A stretch of DNA of 64,000 bases from an uncultured cyanobacterium (GCA_963744145.1 CAVUSO010000001.1:2208001-2272000); one strand, 5' to 3'; shown: positions 7,210 through 48,067, numbered from the stretch's first letter. The notes: a model not told the origin generated them from the letters alone. Numbers and translations are program-made.

Positions 7210-7308
7210 AGCTATACGACTCAGCCGATTTTTATGTTTATTTGGAGCTAATACCAATTTAATTTGAAGTTGCACAGAGCTAGATCCCCCTAAATCCCCC
7301 TTAAGAAG

Positions 7309-29958: not shown

Positions 29959-30048
29959 GGGCACCTGAAATACTATAATTGCAATCTGAATGGAGTCTAA
30001 ATGAGCTTGGCATTTTCAACTATGTCAACGAACACACTTTTCTATTGT

Positions 30049-30606: not shown

Positions 30607-30808
30607 CTTAATTACCAAAAATTAATCAAATGTTTTTTACCACAACATTTCCCTGTCGCTGTCTTCTATTCATATCACACTAATTTGCCAAAATTATATA
30701 TGTCCATTGATTAATATGACCGATTTGCCGATCGCCAAAGTTAAGTTTTACATCAGGTAAAAATAGTGACATACTAGGTGTCTTGACCTAATTCACTACT
30801 TTACCAAC

Positions 30809-31063
30809 ATGGACTATATTAGTATAATTGGCTTTGCCGCAGCTACCTTAACTACAACTGCTTTTTTACCACAGTTGAGGAAAACCTGGAAAACCAAATC
30901 AGCAGGAGATGTATCGATCGAAATGTTGATTGCTTTTTCGACAGGAACTTTTTTGTGGTTAATTTATGGTCTTTATTTGCAAGCAATACCCGTTGTGGTG
31001 GCTAATTTTTTTACATTGGTGTTTAATTTAATTATTTTATTTCTCAAATTAAAATATAAATGA
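30809..31063 (+). CDS. SemiSWEET / PQ-loop sugar transporter
   Basis: AFLPQL.KTWKTKSAGDVS, LWLIYG, VVVAN; three TM helices. Confidence 0.9.
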   Translation: MDYISIIGFAAATLTTTAFLPQLRKTWKTKSAGDVSIEMLIAFSTGTFLWLIYGLYLQAIPVVVANFFTLVFNLIILFLKLKYK

Positions 31064-31114
31064 ACAAATATTTGGCAATCAACCTCATGATCTGTTTCAC
31101 TACTGGGAGTCAGG

Positions 31115-32725
31115 ATGAATAATGCAGTATGGTCGATGGAACATCTTTTGTTTACTCCAGCAACACCTGAACCCAATGCGATCGCGACTATCTTTGCTTT
31201 TCCAAATGAATATAGTGTGGGGATTACCAGTTTAGGTTATCAGATTGTCTGGACAACTTTAGCGATGCGTTCAGATGTCCAGGTAAGTCGTTTATTTACA
31301 GATCTGCATGAATCCTTACCAGCACAACCAGAATTAGTAGGTTTTTCGGTATCCTGGGAATTAGATTATGTGAATATTTTAAATTGTCTGGAATTCCTAG
31401 AAATTCCGATTCGTGCTGTGAATCGTTCCGATGATCATCCCTTAGTTTTTGGTGGTGGACCAGTTTTAACCGCGAATCCAGAACCTTTTGCTGATTTTTT
31501 TGATGTGATTTTACTCGGAGATGGAGAAAATCTATTAGGAGATTTGATTGAAGCATATAAAGAAGTCAGGACTGTAGAGCGGAAAAAGCAATTACAGCAC
31601 TTAGCAAAAGTTGCAGGAATTTATATACCGAGTTTATATCAGGTAAATTATCAAGATCCTACCGGAGCGATCGCGTCAATTGAACCGATCACTCCTGAAA
31701 TTCCCCACCAGATTCACAAACAAACTTATCGAGGTAATATATTATCCGCGTCAACAGTGGTAACTGAAAAAGCAGCTTGGGAAAATATTTATATGGTGGA
31801 GGTAGTGCGTAGTTGTCCAGAAATGTGTCGGTTTTGTTTAGCTAGTTATTTAACTTTACCATTTCGGACTGCTAGTATAGAATCTTCATTAATTCCCGCA
31901 ATTAATCGAGGGTTAACTGTAACTAATCGATTGGGTTTATTAGGTGCTTCTGTTACTCAGCATCCAGAATTTGAGGTTTTATTAGATTATTTAAGTCAAC
32001 CAAAATTTGAGCAAATTAGAGTTAGTATTGCTTCGGTCAGGACCAATACAGTTACCGTAAAATTAGCCGAAACTTTAGCCAAACGTGATACGCGATCGCT
32101 GACGATCGCGATTGAGAGCGGTTCAGAAAGAATCAGACAGATTATTAATAAGAAGCTCGATAATAATGAGATTATTCAAGCAGCGATTAATGCAAAAATT
32201 GGAGGAATAAGTAATTTAAAGTTTTATGGGATGGTAGGAATTCCGGGAGAAAAAATAGAGGATTTAGAGCAAACTGTAGATATCATCAAAGCTTGTAAAA
32301 AAGCAGCATCTGGGTTACACTTAACTTTGGGTTGTAGTACCTTTGTACCCAAAGCACACACTCCTTTTCAATGGTTGGGAGTTAATCCAGAATCAGCAAA
32401 AAGGTTAAAATTTTTAGAAAAACAATTGCGATCGCAGGGAATTGATTTTCGTCCAGAAAGCTATAATTGGTCAGTCATTCAAACCCTAATTTCTCGGGGT
32501 GATCGTCGTCTATCATCTCTGTTAGAATTAACTCGACATTATGGTGATACATTAGGAAGTTACCGTCGTGCTTTCAAAGAAATGCGTGGTAAATTACCTG
32601 AATTAGATTATTATGTTCATGCTGATTGGAAATTAGACCAAATTTTACCCTGGAATCATTTACAAGGACCATTACCTCAAGCAACTTTGCAAAAACATTT
32701 AGCAACTGCTACAGCTCTATTTTGA
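31115..32725 (+). CDS. Radical SAM protein with B12-binding-like N-terminal domain
   Basis: EVVRSCPEMCRFC (CxxxCxxC), FPNEYSVGITSLG, FVPKAHTPFQW. Confidence 0.9.
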   Translation: MNNAVWSMEHLLFTPATPEPNAIATIFAFPNEYSVGITSLGYQIVWTTLAMRSDVQVSRLFTDLHESLPAQPELVGFSVSWELDYVNILNCLEFLEIPIRAVNRSDDHPLVFGGGPVLTANPEPFADFFDVILLGDGENLLGDLIEAYKEVRTVERKKQLQHLAKVAGIYIPSLYQVNYQDPTGAIASIEPITPEIPHQIHKQTYRGNILSASTVVTEKAAWENIYMVEVVRSCPEMCRFCLASYLTLPFRTASIESSLIPAINRGLTVTNRLGLLGASVTQHPEFEVLLDYLSQPKFEQIRVSIASVRTNTVTVKLAETLAKRDTRSLTIAIESGSERIRQIINKKLDNNEIIQAAINAKIGGISNLKFYGMVGIPGEKIEDLEQTVDIIKACKKAASGLHLTLGCSTFVPKAHTPFQWLGVNPESAKRLKFLEKQLRSQGIDFRPESYNWSVIQTLISRGDRRLSSLLELTRHYGDTLGSYRRAFKEMRGKLPELDYYVHADWKLDQILPWNHLQGPLPQATLQKHLATATALF

Positions 32726-32770
32726 TTATTTGTTAAAATATCGGGATGTCGCGATCGAGCAATAACTTAT

Positions 32771-33217
32771 ATGCTGTATTTTCAATATTCCTCGTTAATT
32801 AATGCACCAGTAGAAGTAGTTTGGAATTTTCACACTAGACCTGATATCTTACAATTACTCACCCCACCTTGGCAACCTGTACAAATTATACGTCACGAAG
32901 GTGGTCTGGAGATTGGTGCAATTTCTGAATTTCGTTTGTGGTTAGGAATATTACCAATCCGATGGGTTTGTGTCCACACTCAATATGAAGAAAACCGTTT
33001 ATTTACAGATGAACAAAGAGAAGGACCAATGTTAAATTGGACTCATCAGCACCAATTTAGTCAGGAAAATGGAAAAACTAGATTAACTGACGCGATCGCT
33101 TTTTCCTTACCAGGTGGTTCGATCGCAGAATTTTGTCTGGGTTGGTGGGTAAAAATGCGATTAGAAGATATGTTTCGCTATCGTCACCAATTGACTCAAC
33201 GGTATTGTGAACTTTAG
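32771..33217 (+). CDS. SRPBCC (polyketide cyclase-like) family protein
   Basis: INAPVEVVWNFH..PDILQLLTPPW, FTDEQ.EGP...WTHQHQF, MFRYRH. Confidence 0.85.
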   Translation: MLYFQYSSLINAPVEVVWNFHTRPDILQLLTPPWQPVQIIRHEGGLEIGAISEFRLWLGILPIRWVCVHTQYEENRLFTDEQREGPMLNWTHQHQFSQENGKTRLTDAIAFSLPGGSIAEFCLGWWVKMRLEDMFRYRHQLTQRYCEL

Positions 33218-33311
33218 GTTTTGATGGGGAAAATATTTAATTAGTTATGATCGCGATCGCTAATTGGTTGAATTGATTGGTAGATGCGATCGCTAACATT
33301 CCAAATTTTTA

Positions 33312-33764
33312 TTACTGATTGAAAAAATTAGACTTCAAAGTTTCTTCTAGAGTAAAAGGTGATTCTTTGGGGAAAAAGTTTAATTTAATCCCTGTTTCCT
33401 CAGATGCTTTCACACAAGCTTTTTGATAACAACCATCAAATACTTCTAAAATTACAGCTTTTAAGCTAGGACTATCCTCTAACAATTCTTCGATATCAAT
33501 CCGCTGTTCAGTGATTGTACTACGCCAACTTTCACTACGTTTCTCTGGCTGATATTGCCATTTTAATAGGTGCATTAAAAGTACAATCAAACGACTTCTT
33601 AATTCTCGTCTTTCACTTCGGCCCATAGATTCAATTTCTTCAATTAAATTAGGAATATCTATCTCATTAAATTTACCATCTTTTAAAGATTGAGCTGTTG
33701 TTTGCAACCATAAATAAAAATCTTGCTCATAAATACTTTTTGGAATTGCGCTCGGCCATTTCAT
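33312..33764 (-). CDS. DUF29 family protein
   Basis: YEQDFYLW, NLIEEIESMGRSE, LLMHLLKWQYQPE, SPSLK, A..ETG...FP..SPF. Confidence 0.92.
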   Translation of the reverse strand: MKWPSAIPKSIYEQDFYLWLQTTAQSLKDGKFNEIDIPNLIEEIESMGRSERRELRSRLIVLLMHLLKWQYQPEKRSESWRSTITEQRIDIEELLEDSPSLKAVILEVFDGCYQKACVKASEETGIKLNFFPKESPFTLEETLKSNFFNQ

Positions 33765-33930
33765 ATTTAATCTCCAATATTGATTGATTAACAGAGCAAA
33801 AGCTTACTCTAGTATCATTATATTTAATCACAATTTAGAATAGATATATATTTCTAATTTAATAGCGATCGCGACCAATTAGCCATAAAAATAGTTAAAA
33901 TTCTAGTCACAACCTTACCAGATATTTTCT

Positions 33931-34893
33931 ATGAATAATCCTACCCGCTTGCCACCTCACTTCGATCTACCACTCTTATCACAGCAAAACTTGCCGACCA
34001 TGTATGATTTACCAAGCGAAGATCCAGAGGAGCCAGGGTTGCCAGATACTTTTCACCTCGACCAACCGCTATTTTTAGATTTGACTTTCAAACCTGAGAA
34101 CTACGACCCAGAACAAGTTTTCAGCGCGATCGATCTCTATCTTTACTACGATATCAACCACCTCAACTGGCATAAGCGCCCTGATTGGTTCGCGGTTGTG
34201 GGTGTGCCACGTTCCTACGATGGTTGGGATATGCGTTTAAGCTATGTAATGTGGCAAGAACTTGTTAGCCCCATTGTGGTGGTGGAGTTATTATCTCCTG
34301 GTACAGAAAAAGAAGATTTAGGACAGAGGGTTAGTTTACCAGGCGAACCACCAACGAAGTGGGAAGTTTACCAGGAAATCCTCATGGTGCCCTACTATGT
34401 AGTTTTTAGCCGCTACACCAACGAGATGCAAGCTTTTCAATTGATTGATGGTAATTATCAACCTGCTAATTTGACTGATGGACGTTTGGTAATTCCTCAA
34501 ATCGGATTAAGTTTAGGTTTGTGGGAGGGGGCTTTTAAAAATCAAGCGCGATTATGGTTGCGCTGGTTTACGGCTGAAGGAAATTTGATTCTTACGACCG
34601 AAGAGAAATTAGTCGAAGTCGAACTCGAAGCGATCGCCGCTCAACGACAAGCCGAACAGCAAATAGCTCAAGCTCAACAACAAGCCAAACAGCAAATAGC
34701 TCAAGCTCAACAACAAGCCAAACAGCAAATAGCTCAAGCTCAACAACAAATAGCCCAAGTCCAACAACAAGCTGATGAAGCCCAACGACAAGCTAACCAA
34801 GCTCAACTTGAAGCGATCGCCGCTCAACAACAAGCGGAAAGACTAGCGGCAAAACTCCGAGAGTTGGGTGTTGATCCAAATACATTGGCTTGA
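33931..34893 (+). CDS. Uma2-family PD-(D/E)XK putative endonuclease with Gln/Ala coiled-coil tail
   Basis: LPTMYDLPSEDPEEPGLPD.FH, KRPDWF, VVELLSPGT, LWLRW, ERLAAKLRELGVDP. 33-bp tandem units at about 34657-34755. Confidence 0.9.
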   Translation: MNNPTRLPPHFDLPLLSQQNLPTMYDLPSEDPEEPGLPDTFHLDQPLFLDLTFKPENYDPEQVFSAIDLYLYYDINHLNWHKRPDWFAVVGVPRSYDGWDMRLSYVMWQELVSPIVVVELLSPGTEKEDLGQRVSLPGEPPTKWEVYQEILMVPYYVVFSRYTNEMQAFQLIDGNYQPANLTDGRLVIPQIGLSLGLWEGAFKNQARLWLRWFTAEGNLILTTEEKLVEVELEAIAAQRQAEQQIAQAQQQAKQQIAQAQQQAKQQIAQAQQQIAQVQQQADEAQRQANQAQLEAIAAQQQAERLAAKLRELGVDPNTLA

Positions 34894-35187
34894 AATTGAC
34901 AATAGTCCGGCAATAGACAAGAAAGCAAAAGTCCTTATTGATCTATTTATTGACAGGCAAGATGCCTGTCCCACCAGAAAAAATCCCTTTTGTGGGACAG
35001 GCATCTTGCCTGTCCTATTTATTTTTGCAAGAGGTCTAATTAGTACCAAACTGGTTACGAATAAAGTCGCGATCGCACCTTGAAAAATATAACGTCTTTG
35101 TTGCTCTGGGGATGGGTATTGGGCGTAATACATTTGAGGCTCAGTGGCGTAGTTGTTGAGGATGCCTTCTTCATTGGTGGTATACAT
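34843..35187 (-). CDS. psb34: Psb34 (Ssl1498-family) PSII assembly protein; C-terminus altered by MITE insertion
   Basis: MYTTNEEGILNNYATEPQMYYAQYPSPEQQRRYIFQGAIATLFVTSLVL matches the family. Residues after position 35039 derive from the MITE. Confidence 0.75.
   Translation of the reverse strand: MYTTNEEGILNNYATEPQMYYAQYPSPEQQRRYIFQGAIATLFVTSLVLIRPLAKINRTGKMPVPQKGFFLVGQASCLSINRSIRTFAFLSIAGLLSISSQCIWINTQLSEFCR
34914..35038. mobile_element. MITE with TAGAC...GTCTA ends (TA flanks) and internal GGACAGGC hairpin pair
   Basis: Left end tagacaagaaagcaaaa, right end ttttgcaagaggtcta; internal gacaggcaagatgcctgtcc / ggacaggcatcttgcctgtcc. Confidence 0.7.
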
Positions 35188-35218
35188 TTGGGTTACTCCT
35201 GGTTAGCATTGATTTCCT

Positions 35219-35236
35219 TATGTAAATAAATGTAAC
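35219..35236 (-). promoter_or_regulatory. HLR1 (RpaB-binding) direct repeat upstream of psb34
   Basis: Minus strand GTTACATT-TA-TTTACATA fits (G/T)TTACA(T/A)(T/A)-N2-(G/T)TTACA(T/A)(T/A). Confidence 0.65.
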
Positions 35237-35589
35237 AGATTGTTAAGAAAGATTGCTGTGACTTGACAAGGGAATTGGTGTGATGTTGAACACAAGGAAT
35301 TTGCTCCAATCAGTAAGAAATACCCAAAAAGTTTTCAGCATAGGGAATTCTGGAGGTTTTAGGCTGGTAAGATTTTTTTAGTAGGAAACTGGTAGTGAGT
35401 GAATTTTGTTTAAATTATCTCAATTAATGAAAATATTGTTAAATAACTAAAGGGTTGTGTTTTTGTCCTTAGTTTCTTAGTTCTAGTAGCGATCGCTCTA
35501 TCAGGTTAAAATCCACCCAAACTCTTAACATTGGACTGCATCTATATTAGTACCAGACTGGTTCGCGATCGCACTTTGACCGCAAAAGC

Positions 35590-35745
35590 GATGGGATTAG
35601 AAGATGTGTTTCGCGATCGTCAGTTTTCGTTAATCTGTTATCAGTGAGTGCTGCGATCGCCCAAATAGTTCCTGATGCAACTTTACCAGTCAATTCTCTA
35701 GTTACTAATAGTAATAATACCATTACTATCACTGGTGGGACTAAT
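35590..35745 (+). pseudogene. Remnant N-terminus of a filamentous-haemagglutinin (TPS) exoprotein
   Basis: AIAQIVPDATLPVNSLVT..NTITITGGT is the typical start of cyanobacterial TPS domains. Similarity is lost after it and repeats follow. Confidence 0.7.
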
Positions 35746-35812
35746 ACCAGTTTCATAAATTTGTACTACATAAGATTGCTTGATCGCGAACAGAAAGGAA
35801 ACATCAACAGAA

Positions 35813-36185
35813 CCCTTCGACTACGCTCAGGGCAAGTTTTGTCCAGATTTGTAGGGGCAAAGCATTTCGGCAGATCAATAATTGCTTAGAGCGAGAGAAC
35901 TATAACCGAAATGCTTTGCCCAGCCATTGATGAATCAAATCGATTGACTATATAGATGATCTGTAGTCAGAATTTCCCTAATTGCTATAAATTGGATTTT
36001 CATAGCTTTAGTTGATCTGTTGGCTGCATAGATGGTGAGGGCAAAGCATTTCGGTAATATTATTCTGAGTTGAAGCCATCATTGATTTGCCGAAATGCTT
36101 TGCCCCTACAGTTAACTGAACCATATTGATCTCTAGTCAGAATTTCAATAATTGGTATAAGGTTGGAGGGAATTTATTTCATAGT
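35813..36185. repeat. REPIN-like cluster (two GGGCAAAGCATTTCGG...CCGAAATGCTTTGCCC stem-loops plus a CCCTTCGACTACGCTCAGGG REP)
   Basis: Arms at 35855-35870 / 35906-35921 and 36039-36054 / 36090-36105. Each is followed by a similar gatct.tagtcagaatttc segment. Confidence 0.85.
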
Positions 36186-36265
36186 TTTAAAGATTTTTCA
36201 GTGCCGACTAAAGGCACTAAAAATAGTTAAAATTCTAGTCACAACCTTATTGGATGTTTTTTTTT

Positions 36266-37145
36266 ATGAATAATCCTACAGGCTTGCGACCGAACTTCGA
36301 TCTACCACTCTTATCACGGCAAAACTTGCCGACCATGTATGATTTACCAAGCGAAGATCCAGAGGAGCCAGGGTTGCCAGATATTTTTCACCTCTACCAA
36401 CTGCAATTTTTAGATTTAACTTTCAAACCTGAGAACTACGACCCAGAACAAGTTTTCAGCGCGATCGATCTCTATCTTTACTACGATATTAACCACCTCA
36501 ACTGGCATAAGCGCCCTGATTGGTTCGCGGTTGTGGGTGTGCCACGTTCCTACGATGGTTGGGATATGCGTTTAAGCTATGTGATGTGGCAAGAACAAGT
36601 TAGCCCCATTGTGGTGGTGGAGTTATTATCTCCTGGTACAGAAAAAGAAGATTTAGGACAGACGGTTAGTTTACCAGGCGAGCCACCAACGAAGTGGGAA
36701 GTTTACCAGGAAATCCTCATGGTGCCCTACTATGTAGTTTTTAGCCGCTACACCAACGAGATGCAAGCTTTTCAATTGATTAATGGTAATTATCAACCTG
36801 CTAATTTGACTGATGGACGTTTGGTAATTCCCCAAATAGGGTGAAGGGGCGTATTGCAATACGCCCGTACTGTGGCAGGGGGCTTTTAAAAATCGAGCGC
36901 GGTTATGGTTACGATGGTTTACTGCTGAAGGAAATTTGATTCTTACTGCTGATGAGAAATTAGTCGAAATCGAACAAGCGATCGCCGCTCAACGACAAGC
37001 TGAACAAAAAATCGCCCAAGTCCAACAACAAGCCGAACAGCAAATAGCTCAAGCTCAACTCGAAGCGATCGCCACTCAACAACAAGCGGAAAGACTAGCG
37101 GCAAAACTACGGGAATTGGGTGTTGATCCAAATACATTGGTTTGA
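36266..37145 (+). pseudogene. Uma2-family endonuclease paralog disrupted by a REP palindrome
   Basis: Near-identical to 33931-34893. TGA at 36842-36844 and a frameshift at the palindrome 36847-36866; the C-terminus continues in another frame to 37145. Confidence 0.88.
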
Positions 37146-37325
37146 AATTGCTAGGGTGAACTAAATAGCGGGAAGTCCCAGGATAGATTCAGAGGGGATT
37201 TCTGGGAGAGCGTATGGGCCTGGGAGGGCGTATGGCCATACGCCCCTACGAAAATTAGAGATGATCTGATCGACCTATAACTAAACTAAGATTTGAAATG
37301 GTGAGAGTGAAGTAAGGGTCAGGTC

Positions 37326-38180
37326 ATGGACGCGATCGAGTTAAAATTTCTCCTGAAGTTACTGGAATTTCCGGATTATCGGGCTTCTATAACTGAGGTT
37401 AAACCAACTCCTAATCTCAATGCAGCAGAAAGAGATGTAATTTGTCGTCAATTAGCCGATCGCGGTTTAGTGGACTTGTCTATAGAAGTAATAAAATTTA
37501 AAATTGCGCCCCCTGGTAAAGTGCTACTGAAACTAGACACGGGGAAATTACCTATTACTAAACAAGAACTCAAAGTCCTCCAAGCTAGTGCTGAAGGTGT
37601 CATTACTCCCGCAGAAAGTGGAATTACTGGGGAAAATCGGCAAATCCTGATCCAAGGTTTAGTCGAAAGGGGTCTAATTAAAGCCGAAAAAGTCCAAATT
37701 AAAGAAGTATGGTTGACCGAAGGAGGACAGCAATATCTCCTCCATGAATATAATCCCAGTGGTAATGCACCGATGATTAGTTTGGATCTGCTTGGTAGTT
37801 ATTTACGATTAATGCGTAAATACTGGAAGAGTCTAGAACAAATTAATCCAGTAACATCTATACCACCAATTGTACCTGAAGAAAAAATTCAGGTTACCAT
37901 CACACCTACCAGTAAACCTAATGATGAAGAAATTTTGGCACTCATTCAAGATTTAGATCGACAAACGGGTTCGGACAATTATTTGCCAATTTTCCAGCTA
38001 CGAGAAAAATTAACCTTTATGTCTCGGGAAGAATTAGATCAGATACTCTATCGACTCCAACGGAATGACCAGATCGAACTCAGTTCCCTACAAGAAGCGA
38101 TCGCTTATACCCCGGAACAGATTGAATCTGGAATTCCCCAAAATGTCGGTGGTCCGCTCTTTTTTATTATAGTGACATGA
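37326..38180 (+). CDS. rcaD: RcaD-like protein with multiple predicted winged-helix segments
   Basis: MDAIELKFLLKLL..PDYR start and NYLPIFQLREKL..SREELDQILYRLQRNDQIELSSLQE...GIPQ..GGPLFFI end. Recalled as the RcaD family, and followed by an ATPase as rcaD-rcaG is in Calothrix PCC 7601. Confidence 0.65.
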   Translation: MDAIELKFLLKLLEFPDYRASITEVKPTPNLNAAERDVICRQLADRGLVDLSIEVIKFKIAPPGKVLLKLDTGKLPITKQELKVLQASAEGVITPAESGITGENRQILIQGLVERGLIKAEKVQIKEVWLTEGGQQYLLHEYNPSGNAPMISLDLLGSYLRLMRKYWKSLEQINPVTSIPPIVPEEKIQVTITPTSKPNDEEILALIQDLDRQTGSDNYLPIFQLREKLTFMSREELDQILYRLQRNDQIELSSLQEAIAYTPEQIESGIPQNVGGPLFFIIVT

Positions 38181-38308
38181 TAAAATAAATCCTGGACGGC
38201 GGATCGCGATCGCTGGACAACTAGCCATCCAACTCGATTAGCTGTTTACTGTCATTTTTCCTACTGGACTCTGTATTTGCCAAACACTTATCCATTTTTA
38301 TTGTAATT

Positions 38309-40330
38309 ATGCTATCTATCGATCAGATTATTCAACGAGATCCCAATCCTTTTGATGCTGAGACCTTTTGGTCGGGTAATTTTTGGCAAGAAAAACAAGA
38401 TCCAGCACTGACCGTTGTCTCCATTCATCGAGACTTAGTAGTTGATATTCAAAATATTCTCAATCAAGTAGCGATTGATCATCGGACTCGAACACTTCTC
38501 CTCGAAGGTGAAACTGGTTCGGGCAAAACTTATCTCTTGGGTAGACTTAAACGTCTGTTTAATTGCAAAGCTTTTTTTGTTTATATAGAACCATTTACTG
38601 CTAGTGATTATATTTGGCGGCATATTTTACGTTATACTGTTGATAGTTTACTAGAAATTCCTGCTGAACAAAAAGAATCCCAATTATTGCTCTGGCTCAA
38701 AGGATTATCTGCATTTGGTAAACGCAACTTGCGAGATTTATTCCAAGGTGAACGACAGGTTTTTATTCGCAATATTAGTGATTCCTATCCAGCGGGTATT
38801 TATAACGCTGGAGAGTTTTTTGGTGTTCTCTATGACTTGACTAATCCCAAATTATCTCGGTTAGCTTGTGAATGGTTACGTGGAGATGATTTAGATGAAG
38901 ACAGTTTAAAGACGCTGCGAGTCCAAAATTCAATTGAAACCGAAGATGCAGCTCAGAAAATGTTAGCTAATTTTGGGAGAATTTCAGCGGAAACTGTACC
39001 AATTGTATTATGTTTTGATCAATTAGATAATATTGCTCGCACCTCAGAAGGACAGATAGATTTGCAAAGTTTGTTTAATGTTAATTCGATTATCCACAAT
39101 CAAAAGCTGAAAAATTTTCTCGTAATTATTAGTATTATAACAGATACTTGGCGACAAAACAAGAATCGCATTCAACCGACAGATAAGGATCGGATTGATA
39201 CAGAGATGCAACTTAAACAAATTACGATCGAACAAGCAGAAGAACTCTGGATCAGTCGTCTCAATCCTTTACATCGACAATCCTATCCCCTACCTAATTC
39301 TCATCTGTTTCCTTTATCTAAGCAAATTTTAGAAGAGAATTTTCCTGGTAGTAAAACTAAACCCCGAAATGTTTTGATGCTAGGAAGACAGGTTTTTCAA
39401 GATTATAAAGTTGGGCTATTTCGCAATTATGATTCATTACAGCTTAATCATAATCATCATCAACCAGTTAATCCAGTTCATACAGTTACAGATTCCTTAG
39501 CAGCATTTAAATTAGTTTGGCGGAAGAAATTTAACCAAACTCAGGAAAGAATTTCACGAATTCGTCAACTAGCTTCACCAGAATTAATTCAAATGTTAGC
39601 TGAAGCATTAGCAGCTCTACAAGTAGCAGGGATTCAACCGCGTCTGTTACCACGAAGCTATGCAAGTTATTCGATTAGCTATCAAAATGTAAATGCTCAA
39701 AGACGCGGATTAGTCTGGACAGAAGATTTGAATATGACTAAGTTTTGCAATTTGATGAAATCTTGTCAAGAGGCGATCGATGAGGAATTGTGCCATAGTT
39801 TATATCTGATTCGCTATGAAGGAATTGGAACGCAAAGTAATATGGGTTATCGACTTTATTCACAAATTTTCAATAATTCCCATCATGCTCATATCATGCC
39901 AGATTTGACTTCTATTCATTATTTAGCAACTTATCATAGTTTGGTAAATGATGCTTATTCCGGTGAATTGGTAGTGGGCGATCGCACTCCTGATTTAAAA
40001 GAATTAGAAAATTTAATTCGGGAGTCAAATATCTTCCAAGATTGCCAACTTTTACAAGATTTAGGGGTAATTCCATCTACTCCTAATATTGACAATAAAG
40101 AAACAGATTGGCGCAGTGTGGAAGATTTGCTGTTAAATCTAATTGTCAATCAAAAATGTATCGCTCGACACCGATTGACTCAAGAAGTCTTAAGCCAGTT
40201 TTCCGAGTTAAATGAATCGGACATAAATCACCTGATTGGTAATTTATGTCAGGAGCATGAAAATATCCAAATTCATAATCCGAATGCCAAACTGGAAGAA
40301 CAACTGGTAGTCATGAAAAGCGAAAAATAA
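38309..40330 (+). CDS. P-loop AAA+-type ATPase (RcaG-like), paralog 1
   Basis: NPF motif, Walker A GETGSGKT, Walker B IVLCFDQLD, KPRNVL sensor-II-like motif, helical C-terminal domain. Confidence 0.85.
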   Translation: MLSIDQIIQRDPNPFDAETFWSGNFWQEKQDPALTVVSIHRDLVVDIQNILNQVAIDHRTRTLLLEGETGSGKTYLLGRLKRLFNCKAFFVYIEPFTASDYIWRHILRYTVDSLLEIPAEQKESQLLLWLKGLSAFGKRNLRDLFQGERQVFIRNISDSYPAGIYNAGEFFGVLYDLTNPKLSRLACEWLRGDDLDEDSLKTLRVQNSIETEDAAQKMLANFGRISAETVPIVLCFDQLDNIARTSEGQIDLQSLFNVNSIIHNQKLKNFLVIISIITDTWRQNKNRIQPTDKDRIDTEMQLKQITIEQAEELWISRLNPLHRQSYPLPNSHLFPLSKQILEENFPGSKTKPRNVLMLGRQVFQDYKVGLFRNYDSLQLNHNHHQPVNPVHTVTDSLAAFKLVWRKKFNQTQERISRIRQLASPELIQMLAEALAALQVAGIQPRLLPRSYASYSISYQNVNAQRRGLVWTEDLNMTKFCNLMKSCQEAIDEELCHSLYLIRYEGIGTQSNMGYRLYSQIFNNSHHAHIMPDLTSIHYLATYHSLVNDAYSGELVVGDRTPDLKELENLIRESNIFQDCQLLQDLGVIPSTPNIDNKETDWRSVEDLLLNLIVNQKCIARHRLTQEVLSQFSELNESDINHLIGNLCQEHENIQIHNPNAKLEEQLVVMKSEK

Positions 40331-40374
40331 TTTCCCTAGGAAAAATAGTTAAATCAAAACTTAGTAATTTGTTT

Positions 40375-42396
40375 ATGCCCAATTCTGTAGATATTGATCA
40401 GTTTCTTCGGTGCCAAGTAAATCCTTTTGACTCGACCACTTTTAGACCTGGAAATTTTTGGGAAGAACAGCAGGAAGCTGCTCTCACGGTTGATTCTATT
40501 CATCAAGAGGTAGTCAGCGATATAGAACAATGTTTAGATGGGGTGATTAAAGATCAACGGACAAGGACAATTTTACTAGCTGGAGATTCGGGTTCGGGCA
40601 AAAGTTATCTGTTGGGGAGATTAAAAGGTAATTTTAACCCAAAGGCATTTTTTGCTTATATTGGTCCTTGGCCCGAAAGCGATTTTATTTGGCGTCATAC
40701 TCTGCGGAATACGGTTGATAGTTTAACTTATATTCCAGATGGCAAAAAAGAGTCTCAGTTGTTGTTGTGGCTGAAAAGTTTATTGGAATTTAGCGATCGC
40801 AACATGATGACTATGTTACTGAACGAGCGACAGCTATTTATTCACAATTTAAAAAACGCTTATCCGACGGGAATTTATAATCCGAATGAATTTTTTGGCG
40901 TGCTATATGATCTGACTAATCCTCATTTAAGTCATTTAGCTTGTGAGTGGTTAAAAGGTGATGATTTAGATGAAGAAAGTTTGAAAGCTTTGCATGTAAA
41001 ACGGGCGATCGAAAATGAAGAAACTGCTCAAAAAGTCTTAGCTAATTTTGGCAGAATTTCTGCATCGACTCAACCAATAGTCCTCTGTTTTGACAATTTA
41101 GATAATATCGATCGAGCGTTAGATGGATTTATTAACCTCCAAGCTTTGTTTACACTTAATTCAATTATTCACAATCAGAAATTAAAAAATTTCTTGATTG
41201 TTATTAGTATAGTTACTAATACCTGGAAATTTAATTCTAAACGCATCCAATCTGCTGATGTAGCTCGGATCGATTTACCGATTCAGTTAGAACAAATCAA
41301 TTTAGATCAAGCCGAATTAATTTGGGCAAGTCGTCTTTATCCCTTATATAAAAGGGCAAATTATCAACCAGATACACCAATTTATCCTTTGACTCGGAAA
41401 AATTTAGAAGATAATTTTGAAGGTGGAAAGACTCGTCCTCGTTATGTATTAATGTTGGGACGTCAGTTATTCCAAGAATTCAAAAATGGGACGATGATTA
41501 GGTTAGGAGAAAATGCCCAAGAACAACGTCATGATAATTTAGCTGCATTTCAATTATTATGGATTAAGGAATTTGATAAAACTCAGCAAAAATTAACTCG
41601 AATTCGTCAATTAGCTGGACCGGAATTAATCCAAATCTTGCGAGAAGCATTAGTTGCTTTACAAATTCAAGGAATTCAACCGAAACTATTACCAAGTCCA
41701 ACCTATGCTAGTTATTCTTTCAGTTATCATTTACCAAATCAACTCGGTCGAATTGGAATTTTATGGACAGAAGATCAGAATTTGACTAATTTTTATCATG
41801 TCATGAATGCTTGTCAAAAAGCTCTGAAGCAAAAATTATGTCAACATCTCCAACTAATTCGCGCTGATAACTTGGGAAATCCTAAGAATCAAGGATATAA
41901 GCTTTATGAAAAAATATTTAAGCGATCGCGTCATCATCATGTCATCCCAGATTTAGGATCAGTTCATTATTTAGCGACTTATCATAGTTTAGTGAATGCG
42001 GCTTGTGCTGGAGAGTTAGTAGTGGGCGATCGGACTCCTAGTTTAAATGATTTACAAGTGTTAATTCGTCAATCTAAGATTTTGCACAACTGTGTTTTAT
42101 TGCAAAATTTAGGTATTTTGAGCGGGCATAATTTAGAACAAAAACCTGAAGTTATCCCTAGGGTTGAAGTTAACAAACCGCTCAAAGAGGTAAAAGAGTT
42201 TTTATTAGCTTTAGTCAAAACTCAACAATTAATGGGATATCAAGTTTTGCTGGAAAATGTTTTGGGTCAGTTTCCCATCATGGAACAATCTGAAGTTGAG
42301 AGCTTAATTGCTCAAATTTGTGAAGAAAAACAAATGTGTATTATTGGTACTGATGCAAATCTAGAGTCTCAATTGGTTTGTTGGTTAAATAAGTAG
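40375..42396 (+). CDS. P-loop AAA+-type ATPase (RcaG-like), paralog 2
   Basis: NPF motif, Walker A GDSGSGKS, Walker B IVLCFDNLD, RPRYVL. Colinear with paralog 1 over its full length. Confidence 0.85.
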   Translation: MPNSVDIDQFLRCQVNPFDSTTFRPGNFWEEQQEAALTVDSIHQEVVSDIEQCLDGVIKDQRTRTILLAGDSGSGKSYLLGRLKGNFNPKAFFAYIGPWPESDFIWRHTLRNTVDSLTYIPDGKKESQLLLWLKSLLEFSDRNMMTMLLNERQLFIHNLKNAYPTGIYNPNEFFGVLYDLTNPHLSHLACEWLKGDDLDEESLKALHVKRAIENEETAQKVLANFGRISASTQPIVLCFDNLDNIDRALDGFINLQALFTLNSIIHNQKLKNFLIVISIVTNTWKFNSKRIQSADVARIDLPIQLEQINLDQAELIWASRLYPLYKRANYQPDTPIYPLTRKNLEDNFEGGKTRPRYVLMLGRQLFQEFKNGTMIRLGENAQEQRHDNLAAFQLLWIKEFDKTQQKLTRIRQLAGPELIQILREALVALQIQGIQPKLLPSPTYASYSFSYHLPNQLGRIGILWTEDQNLTNFYHVMNACQKALKQKLCQHLQLIRADNLGNPKNQGYKLYEKIFKRSRHHHVIPDLGSVHYLATYHSLVNAACAGELVVGDRTPSLNDLQVLIRQSKILHNCVLLQNLGILSGHNLEQKPEVIPRVEVNKPLKEVKEFLLALVKTQQLMGYQVLLENVLGQFPIMEQSEVESLIAQICEEKQMCIIGTDANLESQLVCWLNK

Positions 42397-42489
42397 AACT
42401 TATTGCTCCGAAGCAATGAAAATTAAATAATACCAGATTCACCAAGCACTACTAAACATCCAGATCCCCCTAAATCCCCAGAGGTCTAC

Positions 42490-42975
42490 TTGACACTCCC
42501 CGGTCTAAAGACGCAGAGATTCTTAAGACCAGCCTCAAGAGACGAGCTGAAAGGGATGGTCAAACTCCCCCTAGACGCTCAAAACAACTACCAGTACAAG
42601 AGGTATTGCAATTGCGGTTACTTTTCATCACTTTCAGAATCCATCACAACAGCCAGATCCGGTACGCTCGGCAACCTGCCTTTACTTGCCATCCCTCGTC
42701 ATACGCCATTAGGTTTTCCTAATCCGTTGTTACTCGGTGGCTGGGATTTCTCCGATACTAGGATGCTTTCAACAGGTAGATGGTTTATTATTCTTACTTG
42801 TTCTTGTATGCTAACATACTTTTGATTAGTTAGCCAGGTTTTAAAAAGTTTAAGTAAGGGCGCAAGAGCTCTTGCGCCCCTTCACGGCAGCGATATTTTC
42901 TGTGTACGGGCGTATTGTGCGCCCCTTCTGTTTTCATCCCCGGCTTAAAAGCCGGGGTTTTCAACTCTGCTCCTT
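42490..42975 (-). mobile_element. Non-autonomous IS200/IS605-family element (both ends, no transposase)
   Basis: Minus-strand right end GAAT-hairpin(ctctgcgtctttagaccggggag)-tg-TCAA; left end TTAT|aaggagcagagttg-AAAA-ccccggcttttaagccgggg. Confidence 0.8.
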
Positions 42976-42995
42976 ATAATTTGTAACTATTTCCC

Positions 42996-43358
42996 ATGAA
43001 CCCGACAGATCCGGAAACCAAATCTCAGGATAAAACGCTAGAAGCGATGAGACATTTCGCTGAAACTTATGCCCAACGCACTAACACCTTTTTTTGTGCC
43101 GAACCTTCGGTAACAGCTGTAGTGATCGAAGGATTAGCAAAAAATAAAGAAGAACTAGGTTCACCTCTGTGTCCATGTCGTCACTACGACAATAAACAAG
43201 CTGAAGTGAAAGCTACCTTTTGGAATTGTCCTTGTGTTCCCATGCGAGAACGACAAGAGTGCCATTGTATGTTGTTTCTGACTCCAGATAATGAGTTTGC
43301 TGGAGATCAACAAAAAATTTCTCTCGAAGTCATTAAATCTGTGAGAGACAACATCTAA
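42996..43358 (+). CDS. ftrC: Ferredoxin-thioredoxin reductase catalytic subunit
   Basis: LCPCRHY, WNCPCVPMRER.ECHCMLFLT. Confidence 0.96.
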   Translation: MNPTDPETKSQDKTLEAMRHFAETYAQRTNTFFCAEPSVTAVVIEGLAKNKEELGSPLCPCRHYDNKQAEVKATFWNCPCVPMRERQECHCMLFLTPDNEFAGDQQKISLEVIKSVRDNI

Positions 43359-43772
43359 ATGAATGAGGACCAAATACCTCAAGAGTTCTGGACAGGTGTA
43401 GAGCAGTTTAATCAAAAACAGTTTTATGCTTGTCACGATACTCTAGAAGCTTTGTGGCTGGATGCTGGTCAACCCCAAAAAACTTTTTATCAAGGGATTT
43501 TACAGATTGCTGTAGCCCTCTATCACTTAGATAATCATAACTGGCTGGGTTCAGCTATTTTACTGGGGGAAGGAATCAGTCGGCTTCATCCTTACCAGCC
43601 AAATTACGCAGGGATTAATGTCACTTTACTGTTGCAGCAAAGTAGTCAGTTATTGACTGTGATCCAACAGCTAGGACCAGACAAAGTGGCTGAGGTGGTA
43701 GCACAATTAGGTCAAAGTCCAGAATTAGCCCAGGATAATTGTCGATTACCCGAAATTAAAAAAGCTAATTAG
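43359..43772 (+). CDS. DUF309 family protein
   Basis: GVEQFN..QFYACHDTLEALW, FYQGILQIAVALYHL. Confidence 0.9.
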   Translation: MNEDQIPQEFWTGVEQFNQKQFYACHDTLEALWLDAGQPQKTFYQGILQIAVALYHLDNHNWLGSAILLGEGISRLHPYQPNYAGINVTLLLQQSSQLLTVIQQLGPDKVAEVVAQLGQSPELAQDNCRLPEIKKAN

Positions 43773-43936
43773 TGATCTAGAGAGGAGCAATATTCCTGAG
43801 CATTGATTTTCCTGGTAGTAACTAGCCATTGAGTTGAACCAGATGTAAACTAAGGAAAGAAGTGTTTTCAGTTCTTCCCTTGATGAAGTCTGGAACCACA
43901 AGGAAGTTTTGGCGTTCTGATCTAGCACATAAAACT

Positions 43937-44404
43937 ATGCCTGCTGTTCGATTCCTGCACTCATTTATGCTTCGTCTTCGGGTAGCTGCGATGCTAACAC
44001 CAGTAGCGATCGCGATCGCTACTCCTGCAACGCCCCAATCGGCTCCGAACAGTGATGCTGGTCGAGTCATGACTGTCCGTTCTGATATCCAAGAAGCTGA
44101 TTCTAAAACTGGAATTATCACGGCTCGGGGTAATGTGCAAATCAATTATCCAGCCCGAGAAATTCAAGCTACATCAGCCCAAGCTCAATATTTCAGTCGG
44201 GAACGTCGCATTGTCCTCAGTGGAGATGTGTATGTTTTACAACAAGGAAATAGTATCCGAGGAGAAACAGTCACTTATTTAATTGATCAAGGGATTTTTG
44301 TGGCTACACCCAAGGTGAATCGACAAGTCGAATCTGTTTATATTGTGCCGGAACAAACTACCCCAGTCGCATCACCCGCACCTTTAGCCAGTCCGTCGCT
44401 CTAA
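43937..44404 (+). CDS. lptA: LptA/OstA-family LPS transport periplasmic protein
   Basis: SDIQEADSKTGIITARGNVQI, QAQYFSRERRIVLSGDV. Directly upstream of lptB; start uncertain. Confidence 0.85.
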   Translation: MPAVRFLHSFMLRLRVAAMLTPVAIAIATPATPQSAPNSDAGRVMTVRSDIQEADSKTGIITARGNVQINYPAREIQATSAQAQYFSRERRIVLSGDVYVLQQGNSIRGETVTYLIDQGIFVATPKVNRQVESVYIVPEQTTPVASPAPLASPSL

Positions 44405-44409
44405 TTGCT

Positions 44410-45138
44410 ATGAGAATAGTGCTAGAAAATATCCATAAATCCTATGGTAAGCGCGTGGTGGTAAATCGGGTGAATATTTCCGTCAGACAAGGAGAAATTG
44501 TCGGACTGTTAGGACCTAATGGGGCTGGTAAAACCACAACTTTTTATATTGCTACAGGTTTAGAAAAGCCCAATCAAGGCAAAGTTTGGCTTGATGATCT
44601 TGACATTACCACCGTACCCATGCACCAAAGAGCGCTATTGGGTATTGGTTATTTAGCCCAGGAGCCGAGTATTTTTCGGAATTTAAGTGTTCAGGAAAAT
44701 ATTTTATTAGTCTTAGAGCAAACTCATGTACCCCGTCGGGAATGGACGGGACGTTTAGATCATCTGCTCCAAGAGTTTCGGTTGGAAAAAGTCGCCACTA
44801 CTCTAGGAATAAGAGTTTCTGGGGGTGAAAGAAGAAGGACTGAACTAGCGCGAGCTTTAGCCGCAGGACCAGAAGGACCAAGATTTTTATTGTTAGATGA
44901 ACCCTTTGCGGGGGTAGATCCGATCGCTGTGGCAGAAATTCAACAGATTGTTGCGAAATTACGCGATCGCCAGATGGGGATTTTAATTACTGATCATAAC
45001 GTGCGGGAAACCTTAGCAATTACCGATCGAGCATATATTATGCGCGATGGTCAAATTTTAGCCGCAGGTAGTGGGGAAGAACTTTATGAAAATCCCTTAG
45101 TTCGACAATATTATTTAGGTGATAATTTTAAAATCTAA
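44410..45138 (+). CDS. lptB: LPS export ABC transporter ATP-binding protein
   Basis: GLLGPNGAGKTTTF, GYLAQEPSIFR, SGGERRR, LLDEPFAGVDP, ITDHNVRETL. Confidence 0.95.
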   Translation: MRIVLENIHKSYGKRVVVNRVNISVRQGEIVGLLGPNGAGKTTTFYIATGLEKPNQGKVWLDDLDITTVPMHQRALLGIGYLAQEPSIFRNLSVQENILLVLEQTHVPRREWTGRLDHLLQEFRLEKVATTLGIRVSGGERRRTELARALAAGPEGPRFLLLDEPFAGVDPIAVAEIQQIVAKLRDRQMGILITDHNVRETLAITDRAYIMRDGQILAAGSGEELYENPLVRQYYLGDNFKI

Positions 45139-45144
45139 AATGAC

Positions 45145-45166
45145 AGGGTGGATCATGATCCACCCT
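45145..45166. terminator. 22-bp perfect palindrome after lptB
   Basis: agggtggatcatgatccaccct between convergent lptB and petH. Confidence 0.5.
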
Positions 45167-45214
45167 AAATCATGAGAACTGAGAGCTAATGGGAGCATCA
45201 CCACTGGAAATCAG

Positions 45215-45338
45215 GGCGTTATTTAATTAGGGGATGAACATAGATAACTCCTGCGTTGTAGGGGCGTATAGCAATACGCCCCTACTAATTTTCCTGCGCT
45301 GGCAGATTCAGTCTTTCATCCCGTAAATCAGCAACGCC
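45215..45338. mobile_element. MITE with imperfect 24-bp TIRs and 8-bp TSD, carrying a nested REP
   Basis: TIRs ggcgttatttaattaggggatgaa / ttcatcccgtaaatcagcaacgcc; GAAATCAG duplicated at 45207-45214 and 45339-45346; REP at 45258-45285. Confidence 0.85.
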
Positions 45339-45351
45339 GAAATCAGAACCA

Positions 45352-46581
<1,230 letters not shown>

Positions 46582-47062
46582 TTAACTTATAGGGACAATC
46601 TACCCATTACACCATATAACAAAGGTAGTAATTGTTTCAGATTTTTCTCAAAGTAGCTTTAATTCTGGCTGATGCCCAATTACCTCAAGGGGAAAGTTTT
46701 TGCTGAGGATAAGAGGGTAAATTTCTGGCATGATGTCAACAGGGTGTCAGTTTTACATTTTTTTAACAAAAAATGTCCAACAAACCTTAGCATAAATACT
46801 GAGCTAAATAATTCCACTTTCGCACTTACCTAGGAGGGACACTCCCACTGTAGGGTAAGCTTACATGAATAGTGTAAGACTAAATACTTAATCGAAAGTT
46901 TGAGCCTGCCCTAACTGGCAGCAGCCAGACTGCTAGATAGCTTGGTTATTGCTTCGTACTTTGGTACGAAATAGTCTAACTGCTATGGGGAAAATATATG
47001 GCTCATGGAATTAGCTCGTGACCAACCTGGGTGAAGACAATTTTATTCGTTAGAGGGAAGCT

Positions 47063-48067
47063 ATGACCAGTAAGCCGGATCGCGTGGTTATAATTGGCGT
47101 TGCCGGAGACTCCGGATGCGGTAAATCAACGTTTTTGCGTCGCTTAACAGATTTGTTTGGCGAAGATTTGGTGACAGTAATCTGCTTAGACGACTACCAC
47201 TGTCTAGATCGTAAGCAACGCAAAGAAACTGGGATTACTGCGCTTGACCCCAGAGCCAACAACTTTGACCTGATGTCCGAACAAATAAAGGCCCTTAAGC
47301 ATGGTCAGGCGATCAACAAGCCGATCTACAATCACGAAACCGGTATGATTGATCCACCAGAACGGATTGAGCCCAATCATATTATTGTGGTAGAGGGGCT
47401 GCATCCGTTGTATGACGAACGGGTGCGATCGCTGCTGGACTTCAGTGTTTATCTTGATATCAGCGATGATGTCAAGATTGCTTGGAAAATTCAGCGGGAT
47501 ATGGCAGAAAGAGGTCACCGTTATGAAGATGTACTCGCTGCGATTAACGCCCGTCGCCCGGATTTTACCGCTTACATCGAGCCACAGAAAGAGTTTGCTG
47601 ATGTAGTAATTCAAGTGTTACCCACCCAATTAATCAAAGACGACCAAGATCGCAAAGTGTTGCGGGTTCGTCTGCTCCAAAGGTTTGGGGTGGAAGGTTT
47701 TGAACCTGCTTATCTGTTTGATGAAGGGTCAACTATTCACTGGACTCCTTGTGGACGCAAACTCACCTGCTCTTGGCCCGGAATTAAGATGTTTTACGGA
47801 CCTGATAGCTACTATGGTCATGAAGTTTCAGTCCTGGAAGTAGATGGTCAGTTCGACAATCTGGAAGAAGTGATTTACATCGAAAGCCATTTGAGCAAAA
47901 CTGCGACTAAGTACGAGGGTGAGTTAACTCATTTGTTACTACAACATAAAGAATATCCAGGTTCTAATAATGGTACTGGTTTATTCCAAGTGATTACTGG
48001 TCTGAAAATGCGTGCTACTTATGAACGGTTAACCGCGAAAGAAGCCAAAATCGCTGCTAGTGTATAG
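47063..48067 (+). CDS. prk: Phosphoribulokinase
   Basis: GVAGDSGCGKSTF, ICLDDYH, KPIYNH, KIQRDMAERGH. Confidence 0.97.
   Translation: MTSKPDRVVIIGVAGDSGCGKSTFLRRLTDLFGEDLVTVICLDDYHCLDRKQRKETGITALDPRANNFDLMSEQIKALKHGQAINKPIYNHETGMIDPPERIEPNHIIVVEGLHPLYDERVRSLLDFSVYLDISDDVKIAWKIQRDMAERGHRYEDVLAAINARRPDFTAYIEPQKEFADVVIQVLPTQLIKDDQDRKVLRVRLLQRFGVEGFEPAYLFDEGSTIHWTPCGRKLTCSWPGIKMFYGPDSYYGHEVSVLEVDGQFDNLEEVIYIESHLSKTATKYEGELTHLLLQHKEYPGSNNGTGLFQVITGLKMRATYERLTAKEAKIAASV

Follow-up and report, generated by a model that had tools for sequence, protein, structure and literature searches.

The window analysed here is a stretch of 64,000 nucleotides (nt) from the genome of an uncultured cyanobacterium (GCA_963744145.1, CAVUSO010000001.1:2208001-2272000), and positions are counted from its first letter. 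Three genes follow one another on its plus strand: an rcaD-like gene, here called D (37326..38180, 284 amino acids, aa), and two paralogs of the ATPase gene rcaG, here called A (38309..40330, 673 aa) and B (40375..42396, 673 aa). The limits of D and A are those of the called open reading frames (ORFs). Those of B are taken from the ATG at 40375, as in the public gene call P0226; the ORF itself opens at a TTG at 40369, which gives 675 aa. A, a P-loop ATPase gene on the same strand, begins 128 nt after D, and 44 nt separate A from B (38 nt when counted from the TTG of B), in agreement with the order, orientation and gaps given by an earlier reading made from the sequence alone (the sequence-only reading). 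All three ORFs are intact, and the source genome holds exactly one D, with A and B as its ATPases of the family. The gene family and the rcaD-rcaG pair are already known; as far as the comparisons below reach, the new part would be the triad itself, a conserved clade of twin-ATPase loci that lack an effector gene.

The pair of rcaD and the downstream ATPase gene rcaG was described in 2002 in Calothrix PCC 7601 (Noubir et al., Mol Microbiol 43:749; summarised in PMC2799420). [quoted passage not shown] Recombinant RcaD was a poorer binder of this promoter than the native protein, and the authors guessed that RcaG or phosphorylation helps. A Lyngbya homolog of RcaD, which also has an RcaG-like neighbour, was recovered in a pull-down with jamaicamide-cluster promoter DNA and gel-shifted this DNA on its own (PMC2799420). 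A wider architecture was predicted from comparative genomics as 'Orc/CDC6 - HerA/FtsK capture' counter-invader systems (Rakesh, Aravind, Krishnan, Nucleic Acids Res 2024; PMC10853773). As outlined there, the neighbourhoods of these capture systems contain an Orc/CDC6 ATPase with an inactive restriction endonuclease (REase) before a C-terminal winged helix-turn-helix (wHTH), an active REase, a HerA/FtsK protein sometimes fused to a 3'-5' exonuclease, and often a protein of two to four wHTH units related to DndG/SspB. The sequence-only reading had proposed an uncharacterised complex, a description that has to be given up in view of these two accounts. We found no published description of twin rcaG genes or of an effector-less triad, a point on which the 2002 RcaD paper and the supplements of PMC10853773 may bear.

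D matches 1270 database proteins at E<=0.001 and A matches 1344, which places the genes of the locus far beyond chance. UniRef names several relatives of D, 54-58% identical to it, 'Transcription factor RcaD', in line with the RcaD-like character that the sequence-only reading had assigned to the first protein. The layout is shared with the RcaD-RcaG pair known from Calothrix/Tolypothrix (Fremyella) sp. PCC 7601: first a DNA-binding protein, about 285 aa long and conserved in its C-terminal region, then a P-loop ATPase encoded on the same strand. The present locus differs in having two ATPase genes, from distinct clades; the likeness itself is drawn through the relatives named in UniRef. D has no family in Pfam or NCBIfam, and pieces of RcaD scanned separately at E<=10 gave nothing meaningful. 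Its AlphaFold model (pLDDT 77) has three winged-helix modules at about residues 1-60, 62-130 and 195-284, a long helix at 153-173 and a low-confidence, disordered linker at 174-191. In this model D therefore falls within the two to four winged helices of the separate protein of capture systems, and a Foldseek search with it returned weak tandem winged-helix matches only. The most conserved part of D is the C-terminal third, which the model folds as a winged helix and which ends in an invariant tail, GIPQxxGGPLFF.

A side observation concerns this same domain. A profile of the C-terminal winged helix of D (aa 195-284; 37908..38177) matches Z-alpha domains, which bind Z-DNA, among PDB sequences (poxvirus 34L, 1sfu, E 1.9e-4; ZBP1, E 0.048), the recognition helix reading LYRLQRND in RcaD and LYKLQKED in Z-alpha. 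The Pfam z-alpha family matches 5 of 20 RcaD family members at E<=1 (best 0.0023), and generic wHTH families do so at least as frequently (HTH_45, for instance, matches 10 of the 20). The GGPLFF of the tail might be the equivalent of the PPxW of the Z-alpha wing.

The two ATPases align over their whole length with 54% identity (364 of 678 columns), and all the motifs quoted in the sequence-only reading are found in both: NPFD, YPxGIYN..EFFGVLYDLTNP, ACEWLxGDDLDE and HYLATYHSLVN. A begins with a conserved N-terminal NPFD..NFW segment that is not resolved in the model, and its model comprises an AAA+ core at about 35-375, an alpha/beta middle domain at about 396-590 and a C-terminal winged helix at about 601-669, and B has the same domain order. 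Between A and B of the window, identity is 61% in the AAA+ core and only 27% in the C-terminal winged helix. In the fold model the AAA+ core is closest to Cdc6/Orc; the searches with this model spanned residues 5-551, and the C-terminal winged helix was barely covered. The C-terminal unit (601-669) is modelled as helix-strand-helix-helix-hairpin, that is, as a winged helix with a beta hairpin. The modelled secondary structure agrees with the winged-helix tail proposed by the sequence-only reading, whose helical C-terminal domain is not purely helical in the model. The model retains the likeness to Orc1/Cdc6, whereas the proposed alternative of a STAND architecture, which calls for a NACHT/NB-ARC-type NTPase domain above the family threshold together with C-terminal sensor repeats, is not borne out.

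Sequence databases say little about these ATPases beyond the P-loop. Pfam gives only generic P-loop hits for A and B (AAA_16, AAA_22, NACHT) at or just below threshold, and NCBIfam likewise only generic P-loop hits at or below threshold. The C-terminal halves scanned alone at E<=10 gave nothing meaningful, the family profile found nothing below E 0.07 among PDB sequences, and a protein atlas search with residues 395-673 returned unnamed cyanobacterial clusters only. PADLOC-DB v2 has no family for D or A, and for B a weak DndF match (E 4.8e-4) over 50 P-loop residues.

Walker A, of the form GxxxxGK[ST], reads GETGSGKT in A (38507..38530, aa 67-74) and GDSGSGKS in B (40582..40605, aa 72-79 from the TTG start), and G67, G70, G72 and K73 are invariant in the 30 sequences aligned; E68 and T69 are specific to A, B and the single-copy RcaG having D and S there. 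The Walker B strand is IVLCFDQLD in A (39002..39028, aa 232-240) and IVLCFDNLD in B (41077..41103, aa 237-245 from the TTG start), so that the hhhhDE form with its catalytic glutamate is absent from both. As the sequence-only reading had noticed, the glutamate is missing. A glutamine or asparagine follows the invariant D237 in 30 of 30 aligned sequences, Q238 of A standing in the usual place of the glutamate; the absence is thus a trait of the whole family and does not single out either paralog as dead. Two positions on, an acidic residue (D/E240) is likewise conserved in all 30. Such a family-wide D-[Q/N]-x-[D/E] hints at an enzyme that is not dead but hydrolyses slowly, in the manner of a switch. 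R295 and R353 are conserved and are, by position only, the candidate arginine-finger and sensor-2 arginines.

The middle domain of A (39494..40078, aa 396-590) has in the model secondary structure an alpha-beta-beta-beta-alpha-beta core (aa 423-501), and E425, S455, W470, E472 and R502 are invariant in the family alignment. It occupies the place where PMC10853773 puts an inactive REase-like domain. No conserved D...(D/E)xK motif is present in the middle domain across the family alignment, and hhalign of this domain against the active nuclease region of the FtsK fusion proteins described below gave a probability of 0.13%; the sequence therefore gives no support for a common origin of the two. 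At the other end of the protein, NPFD and NFW, separated by seven residues, are kept in A (aa 13-26, 38345..38386), in B (aa 17-30 from the TTG, 40417..40458) and in the single-copy RcaG, in a region that the model leaves disordered (pLDDT <50, residues 1-34). This motif looks like a partner-docking peptide.

We then asked how widely the twin arrangement is conserved. One genome per species was scanned by pattern, which yielded 346 stretches with a gene for a RcaD relative; 79 distinct loci were kept from these, and their architectures were assigned by tblastn with D, A and B. An ATPase like RcaG lies beside rcaD in 78 of the 79, D standing alone in one. Two architectures predominate. In the first, D is followed by one ATPase gene, g (46 complete modules, including those in mixed loci). 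The second is of the D-A-B type and is present in 31 of the 79 loci, of which 23 are complete, three have B cut by a contig end, two are D-A-B-D, two D-A-B-D-g and one A-B-D-g. The side-by-side paralogs pointed out by the sequence-only reading are therefore a conserved feature, found in several cyanobacterial families. Culturable candidates among the triad bearers are Baaleninema simplex PCC 7105, Oscillatoria sp. PCC 10802 and Laspinema isolates. In a FastTree phylogeny of 107 ATPases, all 29 second-position ATPases, B among them, form one clade (support 99), and all 28 first-position ATPases, A among them, form another clade of 32 (support 100) with four members of unclear position, whose B is cut off by a contig end or whose rcaD lies outside the fetched stretch. 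The two clades have the same, mirrored internal branching, and across 29 loci the pairwise identities among A proteins follow those among B proteins (r=0.95, 406 pairs). Clade separation, mirrored branching and this correlation indicate that the duplication was old and single, and that both copies have been co-inherited since. The tree was rooted at its midpoint only, so that A and B may, but need not, be sister clades.

Within one locus A and B are 46-60% identical. Eighteen positions are fixed differently in the two clades, several of them adjoining the P-loop, the Walker B strand or the invariant R295 (for example GETGSGKT versus GDSGSGKS, DQ versus DN, and TDKDR versus ADxAR beside R295). 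At most of the 18, B has the state of the single-copy g and A is derived. Conversely, 113 positions are conserved across A, B and g, including the P-loop lysine, D237, R295, R353 and NPFD..NFW. In a tree of the RcaD proteins, those encoded upstream of A cluster (4 label changes versus 24.5 in shuffles); they form no single clean clade, partly owing to the ORF filters. Of 401 sampled genomes of the phylum, 50 have the ATPase family, as do 17 of 31 relatives. The family had no match in the phage collection and was found in one of 72,556 plasmid records. This sole plasmid copy found (L092) lies at 186722-200737 of pPSE7367.01, a 329-kb conjugative plasmid of Pseudanabaena sp. PCC 7367, where a hypothetical protein, a counterpart of RcaD by position only, is followed by a P-loop NTPase and a 'DNA translocase FtsK'; neighbouring genes encode a DEAD/DEAH helicase with a SWIM zinc finger and a phycobiliprotein lyase.

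These phylogenetic data bear on another explanation of the locus, in which RcaD is an ordinary sequence-specific transcription factor and the two ATPases are redundant accessory chaperones, with neither a heteromer nor surveillance of DNA. The better promoter binding of native RcaD and the gel shift obtained with the Lyngbya homolog alone would suit such an explanation. However, redundant copies are not expected to persist as two mirror-image clades in several families with 18 differently fixed positions, and the ATPases have a modelled winged helix of their own and a further conserved domain. Moreover, in most other lineages the pair is tied genetically to a nuclease-translocase, which is unexpected for a plain transcription factor. 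We consider this explanation improbable.

The genes that follow the ATPases were searched by tblastn over all loci with the fusion protein of locus L017, whose gene comes after g and encodes, according to Pfam, an exonuclease, a PD-(D/E)XK nuclease, FtsK-alpha and FtsK. No nuclease or FtsK-motor match lies next to B in any of 21 triads, namely 19 with at least 3.4 kb after B and two with another rcaD after B; three triads (L009, L010 and L013) have only an exonuclease-domain match, which lies on the other strand and far from B, where the locus ends. In the window, no HerA/FtsK translocase follows B, and the locus contains neither an active REase nor a 3'-5' exonuclease effector. With the L017 query, no exonuclease/nuclease/FtsK fusion gene was found anywhere in the source genome. 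Elsewhere this genome has an FtsK motor 31% identical to the query, in a 698-aa frame, and relatives of the exonuclease domain 1.2 Mb and 1.8 Mb from the triad, without the nuclease and FtsK parts. The relative at 1.2 Mb (G000:C1:1037975-1038523; 688-2043 of L083, minus strand) is a stand-alone protein of 451 aa. Over its first 180 residues it shares 53% identity with the exonuclease domain of the RcaG-linked fusion proteins; its remainder is unrelated and coiled-coil-like.

The reading that we favour, with about even confidence, is that the locus is a distinct conserved form of the rcaD-rcaG module of filamentous cyanobacteria, encoding an effector-less, ATP-gated DNA-binding complex made of RcaD and an A/B hetero-oligomer. 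Its gene content, paralogy, conservation and lack of an effector are observed directly; the folds are those of predicted models. In the proposed scheme, RcaD would recognise DNA and then recruit the ATPases, and A and B would bind ATP through their intact P-loops and assemble on the DNA as a hetero-oligomer, with their Cdc6/ORC-like AAA+ cores facing each other (ORC, origin recognition complex) and their strongly diverged C-terminal winged helices and middle domains in contact with DNA. A hetero-oligomer is suggested because there was one duplication, because the copies were co-inherited and because residues around the nucleotide site and R295 are fixed differently. The D-[Q/N]-x-[D/E] of Walker B would slow hydrolysis, and the complex would act as a switch or clamp rather than as a motor. 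As there is no nuclease or pump, the output of this copy, if it binds DNA, would be DNA occupancy, that is, modulated transcription or nucleoid structure and not destruction of DNA, which would agree with the 2002 genetics of RcaD. A complex prediction for D with A lends weak support to binding of RcaD to ATPase A: it scored 0.57 against 0.00 for the best of three controls, the runs agreeing in at least 56% of contacts with a partner pLDDT of at least 76.

Several observations weigh against this reading. The mark used for complex scores was reached by 116 of 157 solved complexes and by 2 of 215 mismatched pairs, but only 18 of the 157 passed with a score of at most 0.60, as did both of the mismatches that passed, and in the band in which D with A falls a pass is more often wrong than right unless the interaction was likely beforehand. 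D-[Q/N]-x-[D/E] may resemble the extended Walker B of NACHT NTPases, and its effect on hydrolysis is conjectural. No RNA run is listed as containing the 5-kb stretch of the triad, and one soil-metagenome DNA run contains it. The regulatory role of RcaD and its binding to phycobiliprotein promoters rest, in PMC2799420, on one organism, PCC 7601. The homologous single-ATPase modules are tied to a DNA-destroying effector: in 38 of the 46 single-ATPase modules the fusion gene or a piece of it lies downstream. In 17 the downstream gene includes the FtsK motor, and in four only the start of the fusion gene is present before the end of the locus (in L018, 5 kb downstream). In a further 17, from Okeania, Trichodesmium, Dapis and relatives (L024, L029, L031, L034, L036, L037, L043, L055, L056, L062-L064, L067, L071-L073 and L081), there is a nuclease-only ORF of about 300-316 aa that matches only the nuclease part of the fusion, with 41-46% identity; that of L029, the one scanned, has no Pfam hit. 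In the remaining eight modules nothing was detectable downstream. Furthermore, the triads of L015, L038 and L048 lie directly upstream of a second rcaD-rcaG module, which in L015 and L038, not in L048, is followed by the start of a fusion gene before the contig end. Genome G364 has a full-length fusion gene 3.4 kb past B, with contig and strand the same, a position that would fit the D-A-B-D-g-effector order suggested by L015 and L038, although no rcaD or third ATPase is demonstrated in the gap. Among ten genomes sampled for the fusion gene, nine have adjacent ATPase pairs, and six of these nine have a full-length fusion gene elsewhere (G008, G014, G092, G328, G364 and G403, three of them from one genus).

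The triad could therefore serve a defence system as an accessory sensor instead of being a regulator. In this alternative it would be the sensing or targeting half of a counter-invader Orc/CDC6-FtsK capture system, in which RcaD and the A/B ATPases would mark foreign DNA or keep hold of it, to be destroyed by a host enzyme or by a nuclease or translocase from a gene elsewhere. The partners predicted in PMC10853773 (multi-wHTH protein, active REase, 3'-5' exonuclease and HerA/FtsK) and the gene order on the conjugative Pseudanabaena plasmid point the same way as the effector genes just described. This main rival fits the adjacencies of L015, L038 and G364. It does not fit the source genome, where only a stand-alone exonuclease domain and a distant FtsK motor are found, nor the 21 triads with no effector next to B. 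Likewise, the fusion gene was not found in three of the nine pair-bearing genomes (G194, G410 and G401, the last only 92% complete), no defence genes lie in the neighbourhood, and the family was found in no phage record and on only one of the 72,556 plasmid records. Anti-invader activity of family members is itself, in the account of PMC10853773, a prediction only. We regard this alternative as possible but rather unlikely for the locus studied here.

Comparison with named systems helps to delimit the complex that we favour. With the capture systems it shares an Orc/CDC6-type AAA+ protein with an extra domain before the C-terminal winged helix, which here is a modelled one, and a separate multi-winged-helix protein, as these are outlined in PMC10853773. 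The capture-system effector, the fusion of 3'-5' exonuclease, PD-(D/E)XK, FtsK-alpha and FtsK, occurs in related loci, whereas here the locus lacks the FtsK motor and both nucleases, the genome lacks the fusion, and a second ATPase paralog stands in that place. The arrangement with two Orc/CDC6 proteins mentioned in PMC10853773 involves a Walker B that is broken in one copy, as well as a KAP NTPase, neither of which applies here. SspB-SspC and DndG, according to the same source, share a triple winged-helix recognition protein and a Cdc6/Orc-clade ATPase; they are set beside the triad by description, the locus having no phosphorothioation genes and PADLOC giving only the weak DndF match of B. 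With respect to heteromeric ORC/Cdc6 initiators (for example 2qby, the Orc1/Cdc6 heterodimer of archaea bound to an origin, and ORC-Cdc6 of eukaryotes), A and B show no family membership at the sequence level, only Pfam AAA_16, and differ by their extra 200-residue middle domain, a Walker B without glutamate and no link to replication genes. TnsC and MuB, the target-selection ATPases of transposition, differ in their domain additions, and no transposase or Tn7/Mu genes are found nearby.

The triad is set among housekeeping genes. Upstream lie genes for sucrose synthase, a GH65 enzyme, a pyridoxal phosphate-dependent enzyme, Rrf2 and Crp regulators, an amino-acid kinase (argB), shikimate kinase (aroK) and a radical SAM enzyme; downstream lie those for ferredoxin-thioredoxin reductase (ftrC), DUF309, an LptA-like protein, LptB (lptB), ferredoxin-NADP reductase (petH), phosphoribulokinase (prk) and a chemotaxis-type cluster. 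PADLOC on 16 neighbours found nothing but generic ABC-ATPase hits for lptB. Given these housekeeping flanks and the lack of a specific PADLOC result, the setting is not the accessory or defence island of the sequence-only reading. The observations of that reading are confirmed for the most part, and its interpretation is partly supported. No link to phycobiliprotein genes is visible at the locus.

Directly beside the triad there are only a DUF29 gene, a tandem Uma2 duplication with insertions of miniature inverted-repeat transposable elements (MITEs) and short repeats; DUF29, the Uma2 duplication and the MITEs had all been recognised from the sequence. The duplication of this Uma2 (PF05685) gene, which has a Gln/Ala-rich repetitive tail, spans 33931..37145; its first copy is intact (320 aa) and the second is split into ORFs of 196 and 69 aa. 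The 1.35 kb between the copies consists of dispersed MITE-like repeats: the segment 34900..36250 matches 101 places in the genome, with at least 27 copies of an element of about 115 nt at 94-100% identity among the matches listed, and includes a palindromic element with 72-nt arms. An IS605 derivative had also been proposed, and ORFs of at least 100 aa in 34843..35187 and 42490..42825 gave no Pfam hit. The broken Uma2 copy and the MITE-rich DNA just upstream, together with the missing effector, could be taken as signs of a defence system in decay, of which the triad would be a remnant with no function left. We find this very improbable: none of the three ORFs is broken; A, B and the single-copy RcaG have 113 conserved positions in common, among them the P-loop, the Walker B aspartate, R295 and R353; and 31 of the 79 loci, belonging to several families, retain the arrangement.

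On the other side of the triad, a non-coding spacer of 599 nt (42397..42995) separates B from ftrC. It contains three G+C-rich hairpins (42859..42880, 42908..42924 and 42939..42958), the second of which is followed by a run of T and scored terminator-like, and it is likely the end of the transcription unit. The spacer has no nuclease or FtsK gene, only short repeated pieces (matches of 30-55 nt) that recur elsewhere in the genome. No Rfam family was found within 30000..48000. A promoter scan gave 19 sites where 18.6 were expected and was therefore not informative.

In other triad loci, the genes that follow B vary. In 12 of them, all from the Laspinema / Microcoleus vaginatus / Oscillatoria group (L005, L007, L009, L010, L013, L014, L032, L035, L042, L049, L050 and L057), a convergent pair encoding proteins of 244-294 aa and 487-579 aa lies just after B on the opposite strand. 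In L007, the only pair scanned by Pfam, the longer protein has HSDR_N_2 and AAA_31 (ParA/MinD-like) domains and the shorter one has no family. This pair is not beside the triad in the window, and its recurrence may be plain synteny among relatives or may reflect a linked function. In L004, from an uncultured bacterium, a phytochrome-type histidine kinase (5410-7893; PAS_2-GAF-PHY-HisKA-HATPase) is encoded 314 nt after B on the same strand, which is curious given the light-colour history of RcaD, but is a single case. In L021, cobA-hemD follows the triad. The fusion gene itself also varies: L058 lacks the exonuclease and L040 has added TPR repeats, according to Pfam, and in three Coleofasciculus loci (L041, L044 and L047) and one of an uncultured Microcoleus (L069) the order is PD-(D/E)XK, then 3'-5' exonuclease, then FtsK, instead of the exonuclease, nuclease, FtsK order of L017 and others.

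Since 2002 rcaD-rcaG has been a poorly understood co-regulator of phycobilisome genes, and since 2024 it has also been predicted to form the DNA-recognition part of an anti-invader capture machine (PMC10853773). The triad is a natural case of separation of function, in which the recognition and ATPase parts have been kept, duplicated and specialised across families while the effector is gone; in the source genome it stands alone, with no fusion gene. Work on it could reveal how the RcaD/RcaG core acts on DNA when alone, whether bacteria build a heteromeric clamp from two ORC-like paralogs, and how a defence module is turned into a regulatory one, or the reverse. We also put forward, as a doubtful proposal, that RcaD, RcaG-A and RcaG-B might be an obligate three-protein ORC-like machine, in which RcaD would recognise DNA and the two non-equivalent, slowly hydrolysing ATPases would close on it as a heteromeric clamp; it would be a branch domesticated from DNA-destroying defence, stripped of its nuclease and pump, and now an ATP-gated regulator of chromatin or transcription on the cyanobacterial chromosome. 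If true, this would explain why RcaD was first discovered on photosynthetic antenna promoters.

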